Shown here: one piece after another, positions 15,308 to 26,131 of the stretch
Position numbering within the stretch: the first letter of the stretch is position 1
Layout: each line of letters starts with the position of its first letter
Virus record (IMG/VR): IMGVR_UViG_2639762982_000016
Span: 1 to 29,804 of that record
DNA length: 29,804 nucleotides
DNA from: a virus
Lineage: Duplodnaviria; Heunggongvirae; Uroviricota; Caudoviricetes
Strand: one strand, 5' to 3'
Made by a program: the position numbers and the translations under genes
The notes under the pieces: generated by a model
What the model was told of the DNA's origin: nothing
The model's input: the letters and a program-made list of their open reading frames with translations, nothing else
The model's database searches: none

Positions 15308-15375
15308 ATCAATGACTCCGTACGCAATTAAATTATTACCAATTTAACCATATATGATTTATTTATCGTAGATAG

Positions 15376-15412
15376 TTGACATTTAACGCACGAATTATTA
15401 CCTTTCAGGTAA
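15376..15412 (+). promoter_or_regulatory. Candidate sigma70 promoter (TTGACA, 17-nt spacer, TACCTT) overlapped by an operator-like palindrome TTACCtttcaGGTAA at 15398-15412
   Basis: Consensus -35 hexamer at 15376-15381; the -10 match is weak (3 of 6); the palindrome matches the motif found in the immunity region. Confidence 0.35.
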
Positions 15413-15734
15413 GTAAAGGGTTCATTCCGGTTACTAACCTGACTGGCTTGTCGTTAAATTGAACAGGTGGAGTGAGCTTTTATTTTGAGCAGTACGGCGT
15501 ATGGCACATGCGCCGATAGCGGTCTGGATACGTTTAAGGGGCACCCTCCCTTGCTCGGGCAAACGAACCAGGTAGCCGGAATGTGCAAGTCGAGCGGTTT
15601 TATTCCGCGCACGGGGATTCACCATCCCGGCGATTCGGTGTGACGCCTCGGAAGAGACGAGGGTACAACGATGAGAGCATTTATGGAGCCGCGACAAAGT
15701 GTGGCGCCTTAACAGGCTAAGTGCTCTCAGCGTT

Positions 15735-15811
15735 GTGGCATTAGCTCAGTCGGACAGAGCAACCGCCTTCTAAGCGGTTGGTCGCAGGTTCGAATCCTGC
15801 ATGCCACGCCA
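15735..15811 (+). tRNA. tRNA-Arg, anticodon UCU (reads AGA), with encoded CCA
   Basis: Hand-folded cloverleaf: 7-bp acceptor stem GTGGCAT/ATGCCAC, D-arm GCTC..GAGC, anticodon stem ACCGC/GCGGT with loop CTTCTAA, T-arm GCAGG-TTCGAAT-CCTGC, discriminator G, then CCA. Resembles but is not identical to the host argU sequence as I recall it. Confidence 0.85.
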
Positions 15812-15854
15812 GAATCACGCCTAAGGACCGTGATGCCAGAAGTTCCAGGTGCTT

Positions 15855-15896
15855 GGCGGTGATGGTTTCCCTTGAAGGACTATCACCGCCCTTTTT
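15855..15896 (+). terminator. Long-loop hairpin (GGCGGTGAT...ATCACCGCC) followed by CTTTTT; possible terminator after the tRNA
   Basis: 9-bp inverted repeat with an 18-nt loop and a T-tract. Confidence 0.35.
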
Positions 15897-15974
15897 ACAG
15901 CAGGACGCCATTGCGATGACTTCATGCTGTAAACCCGTACAGCCACGGAAGGCATAACTCATTGCTTCCAGTTC

Positions 15975-15998
15975 GCCCGGTTCGCCGGGCATTTTTTT
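15975..15998 (+). terminator. Strong intrinsic terminator (GCCCGG-TTCG-CCGGGC plus T7) 12 nt upstream of the next start codon
   Basis: 6-bp GC stem, UUCG tetraloop, seven T residues. Confidence 0.6.
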
Positions 15999-16009
15999 AA
16001 GGTGAGATT

Positions 16010-16381
16010 ATGAACGACCAGCAAATCGAAAAAGAAATCGTTGAGAAAGGCAAAACGGCACCGCGCGTTACGCCAGACCATATCGAAGGCATTATTGCTC
16101 AGGAGGCATATTTCACAGCAGAAGATGGTGCCTTTGGCAAAGCCATAAAAGCGAAACATACTGGCGGAGAGGTAAACTACCAGCCGCACGAATCACTTTC
16201 TCTGCTGACGTTCTGCGTCCTGGTATTGCGCAACGGCTTCACCGTCACCGGAGAGAGTGCCTGTGCAAGTCCGGAAAATTTTGATGCAGAAATTGGTCGG
16301 AAGATTGCCCGGCAGAATGCTGTAAACAAAATCTGGATGCTCGAAGGTTACTTGCTGAAGCAGAAGCTAAGCGAGCAATAA
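16010..16381 (+). CDS. Small phage protein (123 aa), probably Gp49-like (N4 Gp49 / Sf6 gene 66 family); possible accessory (moron) gene
   Basis: RBS AAGGTGAGA; the motif block LTFCVLVLRNGFTVTGESACASPENFDAEIGRKIARQNA matches my recollection of that family; it is oppositely oriented to the flanking late genes. Confidence 0.5.
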   Translation: MNDQQIEKEIVEKGKTAPRVTPDHIEGIIAQEAYFTAEDGAFGKAIKAKHTGGEVNYQPHESLSLLTFCVLVLRNGFTVTGESACASPENFDAEIGRKIARQNAVNKIWMLEGYLLKQKLSEQ

Positions 16382-16384
16382 CAC

Positions 16385-16398
16385 CGTGACATGTCACA
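16385..16398. repeat. 14-bp palindrome CGTGACATGTCACA, copy 1 (downstream of the terminase large and Gp49-like genes)
   Basis: Perfect 12-bp palindrome GTGACATGTCAC with flanking C and A; an identical 14-mer occurs at 18650-18663. Confidence 0.6.
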
Positions 16399-16403
16399 AA
16401 CAG

Positions 16404-16429
16404 CCAGCCGATGAGCTGGCTTTGTTTTA
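16404..16429 (+). terminator. Intrinsic terminator (CCAGC-CGATGA-GCTGG plus CTTTGTTTT) ending the plus-strand cassette
   Basis: Stem-loop plus T-rich tract directly after the 16381 stop. Confidence 0.55.
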
Positions 16430-16471
16430 TCCTCATCAGAGGATATCAACGACATTATCCCCACCAGCGGA

Positions 16472-17947
16472 TTAAGCATACGGGTCATAATCTGTGATGG
16501 CCTTGCCTTGCTGGTTCTGCTGCCCAGGAATTCGCAGACGCTTCGACACAGGGAAAGCAAACGTCAGCAGTAGCGCATCGCCTTTACCCGGCGAACGCCC
16601 AAGTCGCTCTTTGATATCTTCCTTCGGTTCGATAACGATTTTACCGTCCACGCGAACTTTGTACTCTGCCGCCGACAGATCGTCCGCTGTTTCCTGGTCA
16701 TCCAGCATCCCGCCCAACCTCAGCCATGTCTTGCATGAGTTGAACATCTCCCCGCGCTTGTTGAGCATCTGAGGGTCAGTTGACGCACCACCGAACGGAA
16801 CAAGTTGCCATGTACGTCCCCAGCCATCACCGATTGACTTCAAACCGGTTCCGTAACCGAAGTCGATGAATACCGCGTCAGCCTGATACTGGTCTTCAAA
16901 GTCAGCGATGCGCTTCGCCATAATCAGATCGTCGGTGGTCTTGTTGCCAGTCCATAGCACCTTACTATGCAACCCCTGCCGCAGGTATATCACCGCGTCA
17001 TCAACGCCTGAATATGCCGGGTCAACACCGATTATCACCGGTGCATGTGCAACCTGCGCAGCAGTTACCACCCGTTTCATTGCCTCGTCAGTAAGACCGG
17101 TAGGGATAAACTGCAATTCAGATGCATTAGGGAATATGCCGCGCACACGGATTTTAACGAAGTCGCTGTCTTCCCCGTAGTCATCAACCCATTTCTGCAA
17201 TTGCTGCTTGTTAGTACCTTCCACCGTCCGGCTGTCAATCTGCGCAGTTTTCCAGCGGTGTTTATATTTGCGGAAACATTCACGGAATCGCCCGGTATTA
17301 CGCGTCGGGTTTCCGAACGCCACCCAGATAATCTCAGTGTCTTCGTCCGTTAGCGCACCTTCGGCAACTTCCCACACCAGATCCGCAATGTTCGACGCTT
17401 CATCAAACACCACGATGATGCGTTTGCGCTCGTTGTGTAGTCCGGCGAATGCCTCGGTGTTGTGCTCAGACCAGGGTATTGCGTCAGCCCGCCACCGCTT
17501 GTCGTGCCCTAGGTCATTGCTGTACATCGCGGTAGCGGTACAGGTAAACCAGTCTTTCGTGATGGCAAGGTTCGACCACTTGATAATTTCCGGCCAGGTC
17601 TTCGTTCGTAGCTGGTTGTCGGTGTTGGCGGTCACCACGACCTTACAATCCTCGCAAGTGGACATGCCCCAGTTGATCAGCATTGAGATGAATGCTGATT
17701 TACCAATACCGTGACCCGAAGCGCGTGCCAGCATAAGCGGCTGATAGCGCGTCTCTGGATTCTGCAGGTGATCACGTATCTCTCGGAACGCATCGGCTTG
17801 CCACTGACGTGGGCCGGTGGCATGTGCCAGTTCAGTCCCCTCTTCCCCCCACGGGAACGCATAGAGGGCATAGCCAAGCGGATCGTGAGTGAACCCTGCA
17901 ATATCCTCGATCAACTGCTCTTCAGGAGATAACGCTGTATCTGTCAC
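16472..17947 (-). CDS. Terminase large subunit (491 aa)
   Basis: Walker A-like ARASGHGIGKSAF near the N-terminal ATPase region; acidic nuclease-type motifs later; 4-nt overlap with the upstream small subunit gene. Confidence 0.85.
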   Translation of the reverse strand: MTDTALSPEEQLIEDIAGFTHDPLGYALYAFPWGEEGTELAHATGPRQWQADAFREIRDHLQNPETRYQPLMLARASGHGIGKSAFISMLINWGMSTCEDCKVVVTANTDNQLRTKTWPEIIKWSNLAITKDWFTCTATAMYSNDLGHDKRWRADAIPWSEHNTEAFAGLHNERKRIIVVFDEASNIADLVWEVAEGALTDEDTEIIWVAFGNPTRNTGRFRECFRKYKHRWKTAQIDSRTVEGTNKQQLQKWVDDYGEDSDFVKIRVRGIFPNASELQFIPTGLTDEAMKRVVTAAQVAHAPVIIGVDPAYSGVDDAVIYLRQGLHSKVLWTGNKTTDDLIMAKRIADFEDQYQADAVFIDFGYGTGLKSIGDGWGRTWQLVPFGGASTDPQMLNKRGEMFNSCKTWLRLGGMLDDQETADDLSAAEYKVRVDGKIVIEPKEDIKERLGRSPGKGDALLLTFAFPVSKRLRIPGQQNQQGKAITDYDPYA

Positions 17948-18540
17948 TGATTACCATCCTGACGTTCTTTGAGTCGCTTCCTGGCTGCCGCTATGCGATC
18001 AGCAATTGTCACATTCACATTAACATCCAGGCGTTCTTTGAACGCGTTGACGTCGACGTGCTTACCAATCAGTTCGAGGTTCTTCACCTTGTCAGGCCAT
18101 TTAATTTTTTTGAGGATTGTCTCTATCGAATCCTCGTTCATGTTCATGATGGTCGATGACAGATCAAAGCCGCTAAGCGTAGTGCGCCAGATTTTCGGCC
18201 ACTCGCGGATTGGCTTAAGGCTCCCATCGTCGTTGAGGATGTCGATCACGTCCATCTGGTCGATCTCCACCAGGCGCATGAGAACGTAATCAGCACTGAC
18301 GCGCATTCGTTTGTTGCGCTCCTCCATCAACTCGGCAATCCGTTTTTGAATGCGTTCATCGCGCATCATGACACTGGCTTTAACTGCCGCTGTATTTGGG
18401 GAGAATCCTGCGTTAATCGCTGCCTGAGTCTGGTTTTCAGGCGTTTTGATGTATGACTGGCAATAAGCCTCCTGCATTGCTGTGAGCGGCTTAAATTGCG
18501 TTGATTTGCGTTTATAGGTTTTAGGTTCAGCAGGCATCAT
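17944..18540 (-). CDS. Terminase small subunit (about 198 aa)
   Basis: Motif KPLTAMQEAYCQSYIKTPENQTQAAINAGFSPNTAAVKAS resembles small terminase (Terminase_2-type) N-termini. The ORF track extends to 18618 with a TTG start; I prefer ATG at 18540, but the start is uncertain. Confidence 0.65.
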   Translation of the reverse strand: MMPAEPKTYKRKSTQFKPLTAMQEAYCQSYIKTPENQTQAAINAGFSPNTAAVKASVMMRDERIQKRIAELMEERNKRMRVSADYVLMRLVEIDQMDVIDILNDDGSLKPIREWPKIWRTTLSGFDLSSTIMNMNEDSIETILKKIKWPDKVKNLELIGKHVDVNAFKERLDVNVNVTIADRIAAARKRLKERQDGNQ

Positions 18541-18579
18541 AACCACCGTGGTAATAGTTACCGTTGTGGTAATAGTACC

Positions 18580-18607
18580 ATGCAAAATAAAGCCGCCATA
18601 GTTGGCG
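18580..18607 (-). terminator. Intrinsic terminator-like hairpin (GCCGCCA-ACTA-TGGCGGC plus TTTATTTTG) just upstream of the terminase small gene
   Basis: 7-bp GC-rich stem followed by a U-rich tract on the minus strand. Confidence 0.45.
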
Positions 18608-18649
18608 GCAGTATTCAAAACCCGTCAAATTCATCATGCATAATCTAAT

Positions 18650-18663
18650 CGTGACATGTCACA
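18650..18663. repeat. 14-bp palindrome CGTGACATGTCACA, copy 2 (upstream of the terminase small gene, at the 3' end of the 115-aa ORF)
   Basis: Identical to the 14-mer at 16385-16398. Confidence 0.6.
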
Positions 18664-19006
18664 CTATTAATTTCGTTTCATGCCAGCCTTTAGTCACCCA
18701 GCATTGCGAGTCACCATTACACGGGCATGAATTAACTGGAACTCTCTCGCCGCACTTACCGCAACGTTTTCTGCTGATCGATTTTATACGCCCGCGCACA
18801 CGTGCATCATCCTGGCGGATCAGCAGCGCGATGTACTCGGCCATTTCATAGGGATCGCGACCAGGGCGCCGGGCGGCGCAGTTCCGCGCCAGCATTTCCT
18901 GCTCCTGCTTATCCAGCACCAGTTCAATTTTGCGCTCACCGGCGGCGGACTGCCGAGCGCGCTGCGCGGCTTTGCGTTCTGCGGGGGATTTAGCCACGAA
19001 TCGCAC
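18659..19006 (-). CDS. Hypothetical basic, Cys-rich protein (115 aa)
   Basis: ORF track; C-terminal RKRCGKCGERVPVNSCPCNGDSQC could be a zinc-binding cluster; function unknown. Confidence 0.45.
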   Translation of the reverse strand: MRFVAKSPAERKAAQRARQSAAGERKIELVLDKQEQEMLARNCAARRPGRDPYEMAEYIALLIRQDDARVRGRIKSISRKRCGKCGERVPVNSCPCNGDSQCWVTKGWHETKLIV

Positions 19007-19112
19007 TCCACGCCAGATTGATTAATGACTCCCAGGTAATATAAACCCGGATACCAGCAGCCAGGCCGAAACCAATCACCATGGCATAAAGCAGAGCGTT
19101 GCACTTGTTCAT
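18990..19112 (-). CDS. Putative 40-aa single-pass membrane peptide
   Basis: Internal ATG 19112-19110 preceded by AGGAGGT and overlapping the upstream stop (TGATG); hydrophobic core LLYAMVIGFGLAAGI. The longer 65-aa reading in the ORF track is probably an artefact. Confidence 0.35.
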   Translation of the reverse strand: MNKCNALLYAMVIGFGLAAGIRVYITWESLINLAWSAIRG

Positions 19113-19741
19113 CACTTCACCTCCTGCGGCGGTTCTGGTAGCGGCATCCAGTGTGATGGTATCCACGACGCACCAGGTACTACCCACCCATCATTAGCGT
19201 CAGGATGCCCCGGGATGTAAGTCGCCCATTTCATTCGCCAGTCACCTTTCCTGTCAAACTCCCTGGCAACAAGAACGGCTGTTTTGGTATCCGGCATTCG
19301 CTCACTACAGCTTATCCAACCATCCGTAGTTACCGGAGAGTTGCCCGATATCTGGTTCAACTTGTAAGTTTGGCTTACAGGTTCGGCTTTCAGTTCTGCA
19401 ATGCGCTGTTTTGCGGCATCCAGTTCAATCGACAATTTTTCCAACTGCTCTTGATGCTTCTTGTATTCCTGATATGCGTGCCAAGACTGACCTTTGCGCA
19501 CACTATCAGTGATATCAGTAATCTGTTCTGGTGTTAGCGTGGTCAGTGGCTGTGATGGGAAAATAAGCACTTTCCCGGAATCCCAATCAAAACCAGCGTG
19601 AATTGACTGAACCTCAACTGAAGGTGTTGAACCAATGCTGCCAGGCGAATGAACAACGATTGTTACATCCATATCGCGACGATGGCTGTGGTTGTTGGAC
19701 AAAATACGATTCACCAACTCAGAAAATTTGGAAAATTTCAT
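19112..19741 (-). CDS. DUF551-domain phage protein (209 aa)
   Basis: C-terminal WISCSERMPD...VLV...GWVVPG...SHWMPLPEPP pattern matches the DUF551 family as I recall it. Confidence 0.6.
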   Translation of the reverse strand: MKFSKFSELVNRILSNNHSHRRDMDVTIVVHSPGSIGSTPSVEVQSIHAGFDWDSGKVLIFPSQPLTTLTPEQITDITDSVRKGQSWHAYQEYKKHQEQLEKLSIELDAAKQRIAELKAEPVSQTYKLNQISGNSPVTTDGWISCSERMPDTKTAVLVAREFDRKGDWRMKWATYIPGHPDANDGWVVPGASWIPSHWMPLPEPPQEVK

Positions 19742-20061
19742 GCTGATTCCCCTTTCTCTGCTCTCTCCTGTCGGAACATCACTATCATCAGGTCGCCTTT
19801 TGTCGCTATCCTGGCTGTTGTACCTGGTTCAATGCGGCTAAGCTCAAATGCGTCATAGAACGCTTCTAATGCCTTCTGGCGTAGTTCCTGTTTGCGCCGT
19901 TTTTTCCACTGTTTTAGGAAAATGGAACCCAGCCATCGCCATGTGCGGGACATGATGTAAAGCCAACCGAGAAGTGCCAGACCGGTATTTAGGAGCGTAT
20001 CGATCGTTATTGTCGTGTCGATATTCACTGGCTGCTTCCTTTGCGAATCTGTTCCGCCCAT
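19738..20061 (-). CDS. Hypothetical membrane protein (107 aa, one predicted transmembrane helix)
   Basis: ORF track; hydrophobic stretch LLNTGLALLGWLYIMS followed by a basic patch; the start is uncertain because it overlaps the upstream gene by 37 nt. Confidence 0.4.
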   Translation of the reverse strand: MGGTDSQRKQPVNIDTTITIDTLLNTGLALLGWLYIMSRTWRWLGSIFLKQWKKRRKQELRQKALEAFYDAFELSRIEPGTTARIATKGDLMIVMFRQERAEKGESA

Positions 20062-20678
20062 TCTTCAAGGGATTTCTCCGCATATTCACCAGACAGGCCA
20101 TCAATCGGATGCGCTTCATTAGCCAACTCTTCTTTCGCTGACAAAATCATGCGTGTAACGTCGAAAACTTCACGCAAAGACTTATTGATAAATCCGTGAT
20201 TGAACGCAGCAGCAAGACGGCTGGCGGTATAGTTAATCCCCTCGTTGCGTGCTTCCGCACGAATTTCAGCCAGGAAAGCATCAGTGGTTGGCGTTTCAGG
20301 TATCTGTCTCCTCATCCGTTCTATTGCATGATTGAACCCGAAGTCTTCCGCGAGAGATACGTCATCCATATTGTCATTGTCATCTTCAATATCCCGTGAT
20401 TCTGGAATTGCAGACTTTATTCCCGCATTCTCCGCCGCCAGCGCCGAAAACTTCTCGTGTGCCAACTTAACAGCCGAATCAGCCTGCTTAATTGACTCAA
20501 TCGCTCTCTGGTGGTCTTCGGCCATCGCATTAGCACGCACCAGTTGCACTTCCAGTTGCGTTGCCAAATCGCTGATCAGCTTTGCCACGCTGCGCATATC
20601 AACGGCACCACATTCAGCTTTCAGTTCCGAAGCCATCTCATGCCCGGCGGAAACTAACCCTTTGATATTACCGTCCAT
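20025..20678 (-). CDS. Hypothetical acidic protein (217 aa)
   Basis: ORF track; no recognisable motifs. Confidence 0.5.
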   Translation of the reverse strand: MDGNIKGLVSAGHEMASELKAECGAVDMRSVAKLISDLATQLEVQLVRANAMAEDHQRAIESIKQADSAVKLAHEKFSALAAENAGIKSAIPESRDIEDDNDNMDDVSLAEDFGFNHAIERMRRQIPETPTTDAFLAEIRAEARNEGINYTASRLAAAFNHGFINKSLREVFDVTRMILSAKEELANEAHPIDGLSGEYAEKSLEEWAEQIRKGSSQ

Positions 20679-20739
20679 CTTTACCCTCGCTTATCCACAT
20701 AACTTATTGATTACATTGATAACTAAAAAGATCGTCGAT

Positions 20740-21348
20740 TCATGCCGATCTATTTTTCATCAGTGATTCATAAAACTTTTGCCACTTATGCCGACCGAAA
20801 TTAGCCTTCGAGTTACAGCTCGAACAAAGACAAATAAGGTTCTCCTGACGACAGTCTTGTTTGTCGTAATTGATATGATGAGTTGTTAGCCTTTTGTCTG
20901 TTCCATCACAACCTGGGTTCTGACAAGTAAAACCATCTCGCTCAATAACCCTCTTGCTCGTTTCTCGGAAATCCCACGGATACGGCAATCTCGATAATCC
21001 ACCAGACCAGTTTGGATTTCCTTCCCCCTTCATCAGAGAAGAACGCATTATGTTGGAACACTGTTTCGAGCAGCATTTATGACGCTTCTCATGACTCAAG
21101 AAAACGGAGAACGAAGATCCGCATACGCAGCATATTTTTAATACTCGCTTTAGTTCCCGATTTACCGTCTTGCCTCGCTGTGAAATTCCTACACACTGAA
21201 GTGAGCAGAACCTTGAAGAGGAGTTGGCTCGCTTAACCTGATATTGCCTGCCACATACGGAGCAAACCTTTTCGATTTTCCCACCCTTCCAATTCGGGTT
21301 TTTATCACCGGATACAATCAATCCCGCAGCATTGGGCTTCTCGCTCAT
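20740..21348 (-). CDS. HNH endonuclease (202 aa)
   Basis: Multiple Cys pairs and the motif HHINYDKQDCRQENLICLCSSCNSKAN typical of HNH nucleases; start overlaps the upstream gene stop (ATGA). Confidence 0.75.
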   Translation of the reverse strand: MSEKPNAAGLIVSGDKNPNWKGGKIEKVCSVCGRQYQVKRANSSSRFCSLQCVGISQRGKTVNRELKRVLKICCVCGSSFSVFLSHEKRHKCCSKQCSNIMRSSLMKGEGNPNWSGGLSRLPYPWDFRETSKRVIERDGFTCQNPGCDGTDKRLTTHHINYDKQDCRQENLICLCSSCNSKANFGRHKWQKFYESLMKNRSA

Positions 21349-21698
21349 AGTTCCTCAACCTCCCATCCACCACCGAGCTTTTTAGGTTTTGGATAAGCAA
21401 CCTGAAAGACAAACGGATAGCTGTCTGCCGCAACCTTCATCTTGACTCTCGCATCGTCAGTAAAGACTGACTTACTTCCCTTAACGTCCACCATCACCAA
21501 CTGCCCGTCAGCCAACATCACGGCAAAATCTACAGTCAGGAAGCAGTTGTCAGCCAGCCGCAGCTTGATACCCTCGAACCGATACCAGGCGACTTCCCCT
21601 GCACGTTTACGCTGCTCAAGGTGCTGGCAATACGCAGATTATGTTTTGTTCATCTGGCCTGTTTTGAGTCGACCAAGAGCCTGTATCTGTTTTCTCAT
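21345..21698 (-). pseudogene. Small conserved phage gene interrupted by an in-frame TAA at codon 20
   Basis: ATG at 21698 with RBS AGAGGT; translation MRKQIQALGRLKTGQMNKT, then a stop at 21641-21639, then the same frame continues SAYCQHLEQRKRAGEVAWYRFEGIKLRLADNCF... to a stop overlapping the HNH start. Confidence 0.55.
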
Positions 21699-21701
21699 GA
21701 T

Positions 21702-21778
21702 TTACCTCTGAGGTAATTAAAAACCACATAAGACACGAAATCAATAGATCTAAGAATATTTTGTTACCTATTAGGTAA
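21702..21778. promoter_or_regulatory. Two perfect operator-like palindromes TTACC-N5-GGTAA (21702-21716 and 21764-21778) between the P-like gene and the downstream genes
   Basis: TTACCtctgaGGTAA and TTACCtattaGGTAA; the first overlaps the RBS of the interrupted gene; a candidate TTGATT/TTTAAT promoter lies between them on the minus strand. Confidence 0.45.
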
Positions 21779-21790
21779 CTATTAAGGCGT

Positions 21791-21814
21791 AAAAAAATGC
21801 GCTATCGCGCTGGT
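21791..21814 (-). terminator. Weak terminator-like hairpin (GCGC-GATA-GCGC plus T7) after the P-like gene
   Basis: Short 4-bp stem but a strong U-tract on the minus strand. Confidence 0.3.
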
Positions 21815-21815
21815 A

Positions 21816-22592
21816 TTACTTGATAAATCCTGCTGCCTTTCCTCGCCTGTATTCCTCCATCAGCCACTGCGCCGGTGTTATTCCCCCCAGGGTGGCGGCG
21901 TTAGGCATACACCCGAAACTTCGCCCTGGTGGATGGTAAACGTCTCTCCCTGTGTCCGGAGGCGTACTCATGGGTTCTGGCTTTGCCTGTATGCTGATCA
22001 CCGGATCGGGTATCTGCTGTCCGGAAGCCACCTTTTTCGCCAAATCATCGAGCAGCCTGCGCGCGTGTTTCTCAACCTCAATCTCGCTAAGCTGGCGCTG
22101 ATACATTGCACGGCGGGTATCACATACGACCCAGTACATAACCGGATGCCGCCACGGGAATCTTTCGGGACCACCAGGATATAAACTTTTTTCCTTGCTG
22201 TACCGGTGAAACTCCGTCATCACATCGTCAATGGTGACGCCAAGAACCATCTTGCTGTCTTTACACCACTTGATAAATTGCCCTGGCGACGGCCAGAACG
22301 GAGATTCACTGGCGCGGGCGTGGCGCATACCAGCGTTAACCTGTTCCATTGTTGTGATCCCATTCTCAAGAAACGCAAGCATCCATTGCTTACGGAATTC
22401 ATTAAGTTTGTTCTGCTCCCTTATGGTCGAAACGCTTGCAGGAAATGCAGCCTGTAACTGGACAAATAGTTCATTGAAAATTCTAGCAACCTGCTCCTTT
22501 TTGCCATTGCTGTCACGCCGCTCTTCATGCACAGCAACACCATGCTCACGTAAGCGATCGTACTCATTGAGAAGTTCTGGAGTTGATTTCAT
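21816..22592 (-). CDS. Replication protein P-like (helicase loader), 258 aa
   Basis: Shares the lambda P block FPAS...QN..NE.R.QW.LAF.ENGITTMEQVNAGMR.AR....PF.PSPGQF..WC, by alignment from memory. Confidence 0.8.
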   Translation of the reverse strand: MKSTPELLNEYDRLREHGVAVHEERRDSNGKKEQVARIFNELFVQLQAAFPASVSTIREQNKLNEFRKQWMLAFLENGITTMEQVNAGMRHARASESPFWPSPGQFIKWCKDSKMVLGVTIDDVMTEFHRYSKEKSLYPGGPERFPWRHPVMYWVVCDTRRAMYQRQLSEIEVEKHARRLLDDLAKKVASGQQIPDPVISIQAKPEPMSTPPDTGRDVYHPPGRSFGCMPNAATLGGITPAQWLMEEYRRGKAAGFIK

Positions 22593-23394
22593 CCCACACC
22601 CCTTCTATCCAGTCAGTGTTATTCCAGTCAAGCTCATCGCTTTTCCCGGCGTTTTTTGATTTTCCCCTGATATGATTTACGTGCCTGGCGAATTTTTGTT
22701 CCCACTGAACCTGCGTGAACACTTTGCCCTCAGCCATCCAGTAATCCCGGAATGCAGCAAGTTCAGCAGGTGTAAATTCAGGTTCCGGCAGGGCCGTTCC
22801 CCACAGCGCAGCACGCCGTCGAAAATCCGGCGACGGATGCCAGCCATCGGTCATCGGAAATTTCCCGATGGGTTCACTCAGGCCATCCAGAAATTCAGGT
22901 TCAGCCACCTGCAACGGCATACCGTTCGCTTCACTGGTCGGAGCACCCTCGCGCACGTGCGCTATGTGTGGGGTTTTATATATATCTTCCTCTTCCTCTT
23001 CCTCTGGTAACTCCTTTTGTAACGCTGTTGGCATTACTTTTTGCGTTACTCGTTTTCGATGCTCTGCCACTCTTCTATTCGTAAGTGCACGTTTTTTCGA
23101 TGATTCTCCATTGTGTCGCTCAAAGTTTGGAAGAATTAGTTTGCCGTCATGATAAGCAAGCCATCCGACACTAATGAGGGCGTCAGCAAATCCTGTAATA
23201 AAAGCAAGTCTATCAAGTACTCCTTTTGTAACGCTGCCAGCGTTACCGTCTATTGTTTGCTGGTCAGCCCATGCCCATATACGAACCAGCTTTCCAAGAA
23301 CAGCATCTGGATCAATACCCAGAATTTCTGCTATCTGAAAAATTTCAGGTTTATCAGGAGTGATAACTTCAACCTTAATCCAGCTGCTTGCCAT
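22564..23394 (-). CDS. Replication initiator / replisome organiser (O-like), about 276 aa
   Basis: Sits directly upstream of the P-like gene; contains an EEEEEE linker and DNA-level repeats. The ORF track start at 23412 is a GTG; I prefer ATG at 23394, preceded by GAGGGG. Confidence 0.5.
   Translation of the reverse strand: MASSWIKVEVITPDKPEIFQIAEILGIDPDAVLGKLVRIWAWADQQTIDGNAGSVTKGVLDRLAFITGFADALISVGWLAYHDGKLILPNFERHNGESSKKRALTNRRVAEHRKRVTQKVMPTALQKELPEEEEEEDIYKTPHIAHVREGAPTSEANGMPLQVAEPEFLDGLSEPIGKFPMTDGWHPSPDFRRRAALWGTALPEPEFTPAELAAFRDYWMAEGKVFTQVQWEQKFARHVNHIRGKSKNAGKSDELDWNNTDWIEGVWDEINSRTSQ
23011..23236. repeat. Iteron-like 17-bp direct repeat CTCCTTTTGTAACGCTG (23011-23027 and 23220-23236) flanking an AT-rich, GAA-repeat segment inside the O-like gene; candidate origin
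   Basis: Two identical 17-mers that are read in different frames of the protein, so the repeat is a DNA-level signal. Confidence 0.35.
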
Positions 23395-23569
23395 AGGTTT
23401 CCCCTCTTGCACTCTTTAGTGCACAAGCAAATTCATTACGATGGCGGTTGGCGCTATTCATTGCACATTCAACACATGTTCCGTTCAGAACATACCTTTC
23501 AGAGAGATGGCCGTGACGGCACCGCTTTCCTGTGAAATAGCGATTTAACCCGGCTTTTGCGGCCTCCAT
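23375..23569 (-). CDS. Small Cys/His-containing protein in the cII position (about 64 aa)
   Basis: Position between the terminator and the O-like gene. The start is uncertain: the ORF track uses a TTG at 23587 and the internal ATG has a weak RBS. Motif CRHGH...CVEC. Confidence 0.3.
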   Translation of the reverse strand: MEAAKAGLNRYFTGKRCRHGHLSERYVLNGTCVECAMNSANRHRNEFACALKSARGETYGKQLD

Positions 23570-23687
23570 TCTGGTTACTATCTTCAATTTTTCCGCCCCT
23601 TTTTGTTATTGATATTGGCTATTTTGCACAATTGGAAAATTTGATCAACCGGATTTGGTTTTTTATTACCTTTGAGGTACGAATAGA

Positions 23688-23713
23688 TATGAAAAGACCG
23701 CCGGGTGGCGGTC
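23688..23713 (-). terminator. Terminator between the Cro-like gene and the early-right genes (tR1-like position)
   Basis: Minus strand reads GACCGCC-ACCC-GGCGGTC followed by TTTTCATA. Confidence 0.5.
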
Positions 23714-23735
23714 TACAGAGGGTTGTAGCTGGATA

Positions 23736-23966
23736 TCATGAGTAGAAGAAGTATGCCAGTTCTGCTTTTGAGCGCAGCCATTGTCTTGTTTTACAGGCTT
23801 TAAAAAGCCCATTCATCAATACCTTACCTGGCATTTTGCGCTTACCTGTTAAGTGAGTCTGGATATAGTGACTCGTCGTTCCGGCTTCCTGTGCGAAGGC
23901 TTCACGCTCATCCGGAGTAAGTGCAAGCCAGTGCTTTTTGAAATCGAAATGTCCGTTATCGCTCAT
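23736..23966 (-). CDS. Cro-like transcriptional regulator (76 aa)
   Basis: Small gene divergent from the repressor across an operator cluster, followed by a terminator; likely HTH near ALTPDEREAFAQEAGTTSHYIQ. Confidence 0.5.
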   Translation of the reverse strand: MSDNGHFDFKKHWLALTPDEREAFAQEAGTTSHYIQTHLTGKRKMPGKVLMNGLFKACKTRQWLRSKAELAYFFYS

Positions 23967-24002
23967 AGCTATTGCCTGATATTTATTTCAGATAATAAAT
24001 AT

Positions 24003-24065
24003 TCACCCATAAGGTAACAAAAATCAAGGATAGTTACCTATGGGGTGCATTTACCTGTTGGGTAA
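24003..24065. promoter_or_regulatory. OR-like operator cluster with three TTACC-N5-GGTAA-type sites (24003-24017 imperfect, 24034-24048 imperfect, 24051-24065 perfect) between the Cro-like and repressor genes
   Basis: TCACCcataaGGTAA, TTACCtatggGGTGC, TTACCtgttgGGTAA; a candidate minus-strand promoter overlaps them. Confidence 0.55.
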
Positions 24066-24120
24066 TATTGCTTTAAATTGAATCATCTACTGATTCATAT
24101 ATGAGGCGATTTTCCAGAAA

Positions 24121-24705
24121 ATGAAAAGTATCCAGGACGTCCGCAGGCAAAATCTCAACGACTTGATCGACCGTGAATTCAATGGTGTTCAGACGCGGAT
24201 GGCAGAAAAACTTGGAACTCAGGCAAATCTGGTAAACCGCTGGGCTCTTGGCAAGAAGGTTATCGGCGACCAGGTTGCGCGAAAAATTGAAGCTGCCGCC
24301 AATAAACCCCGTAACTGGCTTGATATCGATCGCTCGCTTTCTCAGGAAGGTTTTCAGCCTGTCGGCCCAAGCGACATTGGTCAGCTGGCGGCTCACAACC
24401 TGGAACGCTGGATGAGCGAAAGCCGCGACCTTTCAACACAGGGAAAACTTCACCGCGCATCCGGCGTCGCCCAGGTGACAATCAGCCGCCTGTTAAACAA
24501 TGAGGTCAGCGTTTCCATTTCCACCCTGGAGAATGTTGCATCCGCATTCGGGCGTCACGGCTATGAATTACTGATTCACCCGCACGACCCTGCGACCATC
24601 AACTATGACCGCTCGCGCTACGCATTGTTACCCGAAACCGAGAAAGCAAAGATCGAAAGTTACATTGAATTTGTCATCAACCAGAACGAAAAAAACAAAC
24701 AATAA
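24121..24705 (+). CDS. Immunity repressor candidate with two HTH domains and no recognisable S24 peptidase domain (194 aa)
   Basis: Divergent from the Cro-like gene; HTH-like segments at about residues 25-45 and 110-135; no Ser/Lys autocleavage motifs seen; followed by a terminator. Confidence 0.6.
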   Translation: MKSIQDVRRQNLNDLIDREFNGVQTRMAEKLGTQANLVNRWALGKKVIGDQVARKIEAAANKPRNWLDIDRSLSQEGFQPVGPSDIGQLAAHNLERWMSESRDLSTQGKLHRASGVAQVTISRLLNNEVSVSISTLENVASAFGRHGYELLIHPHDPATINYDRSRYALLPETEKAKIESYIEFVINQNEKNKQ

Positions 24706-24726
24706 AATCATATTTTTCAGTAAGTA

Positions 24727-24750
24727 AGCCGCCTTCTGGCGGCTTTTTTA
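24727..24750 (+). terminator. Intrinsic terminator after the repressor gene (AGCCGCC-TTCT-GGCGGCT plus T6)
   Basis: Perfect 7-bp stem and a T-tract. Confidence 0.65.
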
Positions 24751-24762
24751 TTGCCTGCACAA

Positions 24763-24839
24763 TTACCTTAAGGGTAATTTTTTTAACTCATATCTATTGA
24801 CACCAAACCAAATACGCATAATCATTACCTCAACGGTAA
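24763..24839 (+). promoter_or_regulatory. OL/PL-like region: two perfect TTACC-N5-GGTAA sites (24763-24777, 24825-24839) flanking a TTGACA -35 hexamer (24797-24802)
   Basis: TTACCttaagGGTAA and TTACCtcaacGGTAA; the -10 candidate AATCAT at 17-nt spacing abuts the second site. Confidence 0.5.
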
Positions 24840-24858
24840 CAGACCGAGGTAACAAGTT

Positions 24859-25011
24859 ATGCAGTGGAAAATCATCAACGGTTGGTACTGCGTTACTGCA
24901 TGCGGATTCATGAGCTGGAAGTTCCGCACCTTACAGGAAGGCATTAAGTGGGCTTTCGTCAGCAAAGAAGCTCGCGATGTGGCCAACGATAACGAGATAT
25001 GGGAGGGCTGA
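24859..25011 (+). CDS. Small Trp-rich protein (50 aa), first gene of the early-left operon
   Basis: RBS GAGGT 7 nt upstream; below the 60-aa ORF-track cutoff; found by manual translation (MQWKIINGWYCVTACGFMSWKF...). Confidence 0.4.
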   Translation: MQWKIINGWYCVTACGFMSWKFRTLQEGIKWAFVSKEARDVANDNEIWEG

Positions 25012-25013
25012 TA

Positions 25014-25313
25014 ATGAACGTTAATCAGCAGAAAAATCTTCAAAAAATCATGCTGGCATTCGACAAGGACTACCGCCTGTCAGAACAGTTATATGACCGA
25101 CAAGTTGAACTGATCGAGAGCATCCGGCTTCATCAACTGGCCTCAACTTTTGACGCTGTAACAGGCAAAGGGGTTCGCCAGGAAGTGCTGGAGGCAGCTA
25201 AAGACAGCCCTGAGTTCGAAGAACTTATGGATGCCTACCGGCGCGAGGCAATGGCAATTATCGCCCGCTGGGATCTGGCGGATCGGATTGATGGGCAGAG
25301 GGAAGCGGCATGA
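25014..25313 (+). CDS. Hypothetical early protein (99 aa)
   Basis: ATG at 25014 preceded by GGGAGGG; the ORF track's alternative start at 24999 lacks an RBS. Confidence 0.5.
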   Translation: MNVNQQKNLQKIMLAFDKDYRLSEQLYDRQVELIESIRLHQLASTFDAVTGKGVRQEVLEAAKDSPEFEELMDAYRREAMAIIARWDLADRIDGQREAA

Positions 25314-26131
25314 AACCGGGAATTTATTTCGACATCAGCAACGAAGACTACCACGCCGGTGACGGCGTGAGTAAGTCGCAACTGGACATGGTTGCCAAGA
25401 ATCCGGCGCTTCTTAAATGGGTTCAGGCAGCACCAGAAGACGAAGAGAAAAAGTCTGCACTGGATATGGGAACCGCATTGCACTGTCTGCTTCTGGAGCC
25501 TGGAGAGTTCGACAAACGCTTCATTGTTTCACCGAAATTCGATCGTCGGACGAAACAAGGTAAAGCTGACGAAGAGGAATTTCTTCGTGATGTGGCGGAT
25601 ATGGGGATTACGGTACTTGATGCCGAGCAGTGGCGGAAACTGGAGCTGATGCGTGATAGCGCAATGGCTCACCCGGCGGCACGCTGGATGTTGGAAGCAC
25701 CTGGTTACTGCGAAGCATCAATGTACTGGAACGATGAAGAGACGGGTGAGTTGTGCCGAATTCGTCCAGACAAATGGCTGAACGAGCACAACGTGATCGT
25801 CGACGTGAAAAAGGTTGCAGATATGGACCGTTTTGCACGCCACATCGAGGAGTTCCGCTACCACGTGCAGGACGCAATGTACCGCGAAGGCGCAATGAGG
25901 GTTACTGGTCAGCCACATGGTTTTTTCTTTCTTGCCGTGAGCGAAAGCATTGATTGTGGTCGGTATCCGGTACGCGTGTTCGAGCTGGATGCGCCGGATG
26001 TCGATGCCGGGCACGCTCTGTTCCGCCGGGATCTGAATACCTATCACGAATGCCGCATCAACGATGAATGGGGCGGAGTGGAAATTATTAAACGCCCTGA
26101 CTGGGCACGTAAACAGGATATGTATGTATGA
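25310..26131 (+). CDS. RecE-like 5'-3' exonuclease (exonuclease VIII nuclease-domain family), 273 aa
   Basis: N-terminal GIYFDISNEDYHAGDGVSKSQLD block resembles the RecE C-terminal nuclease domain as I recall it; D/E/K residues consistent with a PD-(D/E)XK fold. Confidence 0.55.
   Translation: MKPGIYFDISNEDYHAGDGVSKSQLDMVAKNPALLKWVQAAPEDEEKKSALDMGTALHCLLLEPGEFDKRFIVSPKFDRRTKQGKADEEEFLRDVADMGITVLDAEQWRKLELMRDSAMAHPAARWMLEAPGYCEASMYWNDEETGELCRIRPDKWLNEHNVIVDVKKVADMDRFARHIEEFRYHVQDAMYREGAMRVTGQPHGFFFLAVSESIDCGRYPVRVFELDAPDVDAGHALFRRDLNTYHECRINDEWGGVEIIKRPDWARKQDMYV

Follow-up and report, generated by a model that had tools for sequence, protein, structure and literature searches.

The window analysed here, a stretch of 29,804 nucleotides from the viral record IMGVR_UViG_2639762982_000016, contains eleven copies of a palindrome of 15 base pairs (bp), TTACC-N5-GGTAA (N5 standing for five unspecified bases), which are very probably the operators of Rep, the lysogeny repressor encoded at 24121-24705 in a podophage of the ε15/phiV10 type. 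These sites form six clusters across 9.5 kb. An initial annotation of this DNA had taken the palindrome for the operator set of this repressor and had proposed that the set exceeds a simple pair of left and right operators (OL/OR), reaching a promoter after the replication genes and another one ahead of a tRNA cassette. The first proposal agrees with the identity of Rep to the repressor of phage vB_EcoP_ZX5 (ZX5), its homology to that of phage SPC32H, the annotation of ε15 and the register of the sites with predicted promoters, and the second is supported by conservation of this promoter register. The system to which this feature belongs is known and in part characterised, and the present analysis is a confirmation and not a discovery.

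Seven copies of the motif are perfect (Table 1). Shuffled sequences contained on average 0.01 perfect copies and at most one, and none of 100 shuffles reached the observed count; the initial annotation had estimated fewer than 0.1 chance occurrences. Allowing one mismatch gives 10 copies for 0.55 expected. Two mismatches add 17 further matches for about 8 expected, and conservation backs only the one at 24034; this relaxation of the motif was rejected, its additions being mostly due to chance with 24034 as the sole conserved gain. In its ten specified bases the site is fully palindromic, and the centres of its TTACC half-sites lie 10 bp, one helical turn, apart. All nine sites listed by the initial annotation are real, its six perfect copies lying exactly where it had placed them and its three imperfect ones (one mismatch each at 23666 and 24003, two at 24034) being conserved, but the list was incomplete, the perfect copy at 18558 and the one-mismatch copy at 18540 having been overlooked. 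As a control, 50 kb of the E. coli chromosome contained no perfect copy and a single one-mismatch copy (0.9 expected); with the host flank of a near-identical prophage (about 15 kb, no perfect copy), about 65 kb of host DNA is devoid of perfect sites. The statement that all copies are intergenic holds if the small terminase gene terS starts at ATG 18537, but a longer open reading frame (ORF) from TTG 18618 would include the pair of sites found there. With this intergenic placement and a frequency in host DNA at the level of chance, the motif is not equally common in coding sequence.

The assignment of these sites to Rep is supported by several lines of homology. Rep is 100% identical to the ORF21 repressor of ZX5, over-expression of which eliminated free phage and lowered the transcripts for holin and endolysin by 99.97-99.99% (PMC9782041). 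Homology to SPC32H Rep likewise covers the full length, residues 1-190 matching residues 2-197 of the chain in PDB 5D50 (phmmer, E=4e-42). Secondary sources describe the latter as binding palindromic sites as a tetramer with DNA-binding-domain pairs contributed by different dimers, the tetramer being dismantled by the antirepressor Ant (PMC9638917), and PMC9986798 gives its layout as an N-terminal DNA-binding domain, a middle helix-turn-helix (HTH)-like dimerisation domain and a C-terminal domain for tetramerisation and Ant binding. The protein had been called a tandem-HTH repressor. Both HTHs are indeed present in the sequence, Pfam detecting HTH_3 at residues 106-147 and, weakly, a YdaS/Cro-like HTH at 21-61, but SPC32H Rep reads DNA with its N-terminal domain only, according to PMC9986798, and by analogy the first HTH alone is expected to read DNA here. 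Pfam matches in Rep are restricted to HTH families, with no peptidase S24 or LexA-type autocleavage domain.

The annotation of ε15, whose repressor shares 42% identity with Rep, designates the same motif. The RefSeq record (NC_004775.2) holds seven features labelled as protein binding by the lysogeny repressor, located before terS, before gp3, in the gap between gp19 and the tail-fibre gene, at three places after the repressor gene and at one after the replication gene. Each of the seven consists of TTACC-N5-GGTAA flanked by an outer A and T, giving a 17-bp form ATTACC-N5-GGTAAT. Searching ε15 with the 15-bp core recovers five more sites: three between the repressor gene and gp39, another one past the replication gene and one ahead of the lysis genes. 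The core is therefore a better description of the sites than the 17-bp form seemingly behind the annotation, since it recovers those between the repressor and cro-like genes.

The motif occurs at matching positions in seven records (ZX5, phiV10, ε15, SPC32H, Tyrion, BUCT554 and the near-identical E. coli prophage L022) and in 14 prophages recovered through homology to Rep (42-75% identity). The comparison covers 22 related elements from about 12 host genera, the 14 coming from Superficieibacter, Erwinia, Pseudocitrobacter, Pseudescherichia, Kluyvera, Rahnella, Samsonia, Klebsiella, Pantoea and Citrobacter, and from contigs labelled Pseudomonas and Advenella. When alignments are anchored at gene ends instead of the motif, conserved islands appear at the half-sites and at the -35 and -10 boxes, while N5 and the promoter spacers drift. 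Even the imperfections are retained: the weak TCACC half-site beside the cro-like gene recurs in phiV10-like relatives as well as in ε15 and SPC32H, and the defective outer base of the site after this gene recurs in phiV10-like relatives. The right operator (OR) consists of three sites spaced by 31 and 17 bp, an arrangement conserved in 21 loci. Its middle site, degenerate in the window, is perfect in ε15, SPC32H and Klebsiella, and its position 17 bp from the next site is kept in all relatives; the rep-proximal site starts about 70 bp 5' of the rep ATG in close relatives and 62-76 bp over all loci.

The sites are moreover in register with predicted promoters (Table 1). Promoters are consensus readings throughout, and terminators come from a consensus scan unless the annotation of a relative is named. 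In four modules an operator overlaps, or lies just downstream of, the -10/+1 region of a conserved σ70-type promoter. At the early-left promoter (PL) the -35 and -10 boxes are kept in 15 aligned relatives, with a promoter spacer that varies. The promoter after the replication genes shows a PL-like geometry, also conserved in 15 relatives, its distal operator standing 19 nucleotides (nt) before TTGATT; N5 and the right half of its proximal operator (AGAGGTAA; AGAGG) double as the Shine-Dalgarno sequence of ATG 21698. Scanned terminators precede three of the six modules (after the cro-like gene, at terS and at PL), and a putative terminator before the post-replication module is annotated in phiV10. 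No convincing -35/-10 pair for the repressor's own promoter (the PRM equivalent) was read from the sequence at 24066-24120. A conserved TTTAAAT block is found 7 nt past the rep-proximal operator, where the ε15 record places an IHF site.

Two of the clusters extend the operator set into the late region. At terS, the order is terminator, extended -10, operator 18572-18558, operator 18554-18540 and ATG, the operators here running from +1 onward. The extended -10 element TGnTAnnAT, of which the last base is the first T of TTACC, is kept in 14 of 15 aligned relatives, the exception being Samsonia (L015). The packaging and late unit thus also carries sites, and not the tRNA cassette alone. ATG 18537 is the annotated terS start in ZX5, ε15 and SPC32H, and the Prokaryotic Genome Annotation Pipeline (PGAP) start in a near-identical prophage is TTG 18618 (ORF 17944-18618). 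ATG 18537 is the likelier start, as the longer ORF would contain the terminator 18609-18592 in addition to both operators. At the cassette, the operator at 15398 had been described as overlapping the -10 of the promoter upstream of the tRNA, and this position over -10/+1 follows from a conserved plus-strand TTGACA whose distance to the operator is a constant 16 nt in 11 of 12 aligned relatives, Rahnella included; this box is absent in Samsonia (L015) and nearer to the operator in Pantoea (L018). The consensus scan did not pick up this promoter because its -10 is weak. Beside the same operator, no convincing late-strand promoter for gp3 was seen, the conserved TTGACA being on the plus strand.

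Table 1. Predicted operators, promoters and terminators of the window, with the genes they adjoin (positions in the window; for sites, agreement with TTACC-N5-GGTAA is indicated).
Feature	Position	Strand	Sequence and remarks
tRNA/Gp49-family cassette promoter	15376-15404	+	TTGACA (15376-15381)-17-TACCTT
Cassette operator	15398-15412		Perfect; over -10/+1; orthologous to ε15 annotated site 2931-2947
tRNA-Arg(TCT)	15735-15811	+	Cassette between terL and head genes
Gp49-family gene	16010-16381	+	Same cassette
terS	18537-17944	-
terS operator 2	18540-18554		TAACC, 1 mismatch; 18 bp from operator 1; 2 nt before ATG 18537
terS operator 1	18558-18572		Perfect; orthologous to ε15 annotated site 12-27
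Extended -10 promoter ahead of terS	18572-18580	-	TGgTACTAT; alignment of relatives
Terminator ahead of terS	18592-18609	-	Consensus scan
Proximal operator, post-replication promoter	21702-21716		Perfect; ATG 21698 three bases on
Promoter after replication genes	21716-21744	-	TTGATT (21744-21739)-17-TTTAAT (21721-21716); read from sequence
Distal operator, promoter after P-like gene	21764-21778		Perfect
DnaT-domain gene and λ-P-like gene	23412-21816	-
Replication-gene promoter	23648-23643, 23626-23621	-	Conserved TTGATC and nAAAAT; 17 nt downstream of site 23666
Post-cro operator	23666-23680		GTACC on late strand, 1 mismatch
Terminator after cro-like gene	23695-23714	-	Scan; annotated in phiV10
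cro-like gene (ε15 gp39 homologue)	23736-23966	-	76 residues; divergent from rep
Rightward promoter (PR), cro-like gene	24020-24015, 23997-23992	-	TTGTTA-17-TATTAT; consensus scan; site 24003 in its spacer
OR site nearest cro	24003-24017		TCACC-N5-GGTAA, 1 mismatch; conserved in relatives
OR middle site	24034-24048		TTACC-N5-GGTGC, 2 mismatches
OR site nearest rep	24051-24065		Perfect
Lysogeny repressor gene rep	24121-24705	+	194 residues
rep terminator	24726-24745	+	8-bp stem, 6 GC pairs, T-run
PL distal operator	24763-24777		Perfect; centred at about -62; conserved T-tract next; -35 after 19 nt
Early-left promoter PL	24797-24825	+	TTGACA-17-AATCAT; 10/12 consensus matches
PL proximal operator	24825-24839		Perfect; covers last base of -10 and +1
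Integrase gene	window's end	-

The distances between neighbouring sites over all loci are 17-20, 30-31, 48, 62-63 and 73-76 bp, none falling at 64-72 bp. The PL pair is 62 bp apart in 14 of 15 aligned relatives and 63 bp in the remaining one (L017); by group, 62 bp is found in E. coli, Salmonella and Citrobacter, and 73-75 bp in Rahnella, Samsonia, Pantoea and the contig labelled Pseudomonas. The passage from 62 to 73-76 bp corresponds to a shift of about one helical turn, a hint that a protein such as a two-headed tetramer grips both sites from one face of the DNA, and a hint instead of a proof because few independent evolutionary events are involved. For the weak sites on either side of the cro-like gene the separation is 325-326 or 336-337 bp, again a difference of about one turn, which is weaker still as evidence of phasing.

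Among the competing explanations, a chance or compositional repeat, or the site of a host factor unrelated to the phage repressor, scarcely deserves credence: the flanks are A+T-rich like many intergenic regions, which is no actual point in its favour, and the shuffles, the host DNA without perfect sites and the retention of positions and spacings in about 12 host genera, in every case alongside Rep, all argue against it. A more serious possibility, which we nevertheless do not favour, is that the palindrome serves mainly the Cro-like protein, or Cro together with Rep as in λ, with Cro acting in the lytic cycle to damp early and lysogenic promoters. Operators are indeed shared between Cro and the repressor in λ-type switches. 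The Cro-like protein of the window, which has no Pfam match, possesses a clear HTH with an invariant stretch AGTTSHYIQTHLTG and is 76% identical to its ε15 homologue gp39, versus 42% for Rep; among 17 loci examined, 15 have its gene next to rep and alongside the motif. Conservation and co-occurrence do not separate the two proteins as readers of the motif, since they are nearly always together and both conserved. Other points speak against this rival: the curators of ε15 assigned the sites to the repressor, the homologue of Rep is reported to bind palindromic sites as a tetramer, and paired, helically phased sites suit a two-headed tetramer better than a small Cro dimer. The Cro-like protein may share the sites, a situation compatible with operators of Rep and no replacement for them.

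It was also considered that the sites at terS, at the tRNA cassette and after the cro-like gene act not as promoter operators but as roadblocks, bound repressor halting read-through past the upstream terminators, comparable to the stoperators of mycobacteriophage L5 gp71. A scanned terminator stands immediately ahead of three of the six modules, and the one annotated in phiV10 precedes a fourth; the terS pair is in the 5' leader, between the putative start of transcription and the ATG, and the site at 23666 overlaps no promoter core. On the other hand, a conserved -35 and/or (extended) -10 is found in fixed register at terS, at the cassette and after the P-like gene, which points to promoter occlusion, and the sites are palindromic, in contrast with the asymmetric and orientation-dependent L5 stoperators. 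Roadblock and occlusion are not mutually exclusive, and roadblocks as such appear improbable.

Several observations weigh against the attribution of the sites to Rep. The Cro-like protein equals or exceeds Rep in conservation and is nearly always found with it. Motif and recognition helix are both essentially unchanged among Rep homologues and consequently bring no covariation evidence on specificity: relatives combining an altered helix with an altered operator were sought among Rep homologues down to 42% identity, and none had an altered motif, the changes in the helix being conservative only. In 18 homologues down to that identity, the helix NLVNRW is invariant or shows conservative changes (L/V, V/I, N/S), with N36, R40 and W41 strictly invariant. 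The sites at 15398 and 23666 each stand without a close neighbour, a situation that a strict model of a two-headed tetramer leaves unexplained. Finally, the promoters are read by consensus, and the replication promoter and the -10 of the tRNA cassette (TACCTT) score under the scan threshold. Across loci L003-L020, covering about 12 genera, one half-site and a near-unchanged helix are seen even though identity over the remainder of Rep drops as low as 42%. Lambdoid phages by contrast have very diverse immunity specificities.

From the sites, their statistics and conservation, their promoter register and the homology of the protein, we infer physical binding by Rep, oligomeric bridging and which promoters fire. 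The sequence and its conservation outline a genome in which terminators split the transcription units, each of them restarting at a σ70-type promoter carrying operators. By homology with SPC32H Rep, the repressor would be a tetramer with two DNA-reading heads, the N-terminal HTH of Rep reading two TTACC half-sites, and such a tetramer could hold two operators at once. In a lysogen, Rep would sit on operators that cover the core of at least four conserved promoters or lie shortly past their start points, and on upstream partner sites as well. Rep alone would thereby directly silence early-left, early-right, replication, nin-type, packaging and cassette transcription, and the terminators between units would limit read-through. 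Induction would proceed via an antirepressor, as in SPC32H, instead of RecA-mediated cleavage, given that Rep has no autocleavage domain. In ZX5 and phiV10 an operator stands next to a gp19/Ant-like ORF and the gene of a Bro-type antirepressor.

More speculatively, and we remain doubtful of it, Rep tetramers might bridge phased pairs into repression loops at every lytic promoter, hold the late genes directly and confer a single operator specificity on the whole genus. The candidates for looping are the PL and post-replication pairs, with separations of 62 or 73-76 bp, and possibly the weak sites 325-337 bp apart.

Compared with known systems, the window resembles ε15 in its half-sites, in the positions of the sites (ahead of terS and gp3, and past the repressor and replication genes) and in gene order. 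It differs in having two sites at PL versus three in ε15 (76 and 62 bp apart), and in its post-cro site and its tRNA, neither of which is found in ε15. Kropinski et al. (2007, Virology 369:234) reportedly proposed a 17-bp consensus, ATTACCWDWWNGGTAAT, for ε15, with which the form of the seven annotated sites agrees; a full-text search for this consensus returned no match. The Rep/Ant switch of SPC32H (Kim & Ryu 2013; Kim et al. 2016; PDB 5D50 and 5D4Z) shares with the window the homology of the repressor, the motif and layout of the operators, the place of the tRNA-Arg gene and the lack of an autocleavage domain; protein identity is about 42-50%, mainly in the N-terminal domain, and the antirepressor gene with its LexA control lies outside this window. 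Three operators between divergent repressor and cro-like genes also recall λ, unlike which Rep is without a RecA-cleavable domain and its operators are not confined to OL/OR. Numerous sites spread over the genome, with one repressor over several units, are known from P1 C1 and mycobacteriophage L5 gp71. P1 operators are asymmetric and L5 stoperators asymmetric and orientation-dependent, while those of the window are palindromic and in promoter register. The closest relatives, phiV10, TL-2011b and ZX5, are 97-98% identical to the window in DNA over the immunity and replication region (21400-25400) and carry all operator sites at matching positions. On this identity the window is an E. coli prophage of phiV10/ε15 type (Uetakevirus; ε15-like podophages). 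Their records have annotated terminators and no operators, and the ZX5 paper only speculates on a "PL operon" (PMC9782041).

Prophages matching the 21400-25400 stretch were found in 782 of 5426 complete E. coli genomes. In the near-identical prophage L022 the element adjoins guaA, reported as the attachment site of ZX5 (PMC9782041). The gene order was derived from ORFs, Pfam and the annotation of relatives. On the minus strand the cro-like gene is followed by a small gene, the DnaT-domain and λ-P-like genes, a nin-type block, terS, terL and the head and tail genes; on the plus strand the repressor gene is followed by recE/recT and further genes. The small plus-strand cassette between terL and the head genes begins with the tRNA-Arg(TCT), which is present at the same position in SPC32H and in O157 typing phages and was the sole Rfam match.

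Some additional features were noticed around these modules. Between the cassette promoter and the tRNA lies a leader of about 330 nt (15405-15734, plus strand), partly conserved in relatives, that folds somewhat better than shuffles (z = -2.3), has no Rfam match and corresponds to a stretch labelled as an RNase III site in the ε15 record. In the gap between gp3 and the cassette promoter, the block ATTATTACCAATTTAACC (15330-15350) is conserved in nearly all relatives and contains a lone TTACC half-site; it might be a gp3 promoter or a leader. An 83-residue ORF antisense over the tRNA (15741-15992, minus strand), labelled hypothetical protein in ZX5 and without Pfam match, is probably not a gene. 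The DUF1064 gene (21340-21698, minus strand), of which the start lies 3 nt past operator 21702, is interrupted by an in-frame TAA at codon 20, and left of about 21546, in the nin-type region, the window no longer matches ZX5 and phiV10; this gene looks inactivated or recombinant in this prophage. Beyond the window, a conserved one-mismatch copy ATACC-N5-GGTAA is found between the integrase start and guaA/attP (28301-28315 in L022; 20302 in L001, 12221 in L002 and 26882 in L003), and relatives carry further conserved sites ahead of the lysis genes and next to the genes for the tail fibre and the antirepressor, so that the operator set extends past the window.

This work leaves the understanding of regulation in these phages unchanged. 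It provides a complete coordinate-level map of operators and promoters for a common E. coli prophage type, adding operators that the GenBank records of its closest relatives leave unannotated. If looping and a single operator specificity were true, the σ70 extended -10 promoter of the packaging genes would be held by the lysogeny repressor and not only through the regulatory cascade, and all these phages, across about 12 host genera, would be cross-immune at the operator level, possibly because superinfection is handled by O-antigen conversion and not by heteroimmunity.

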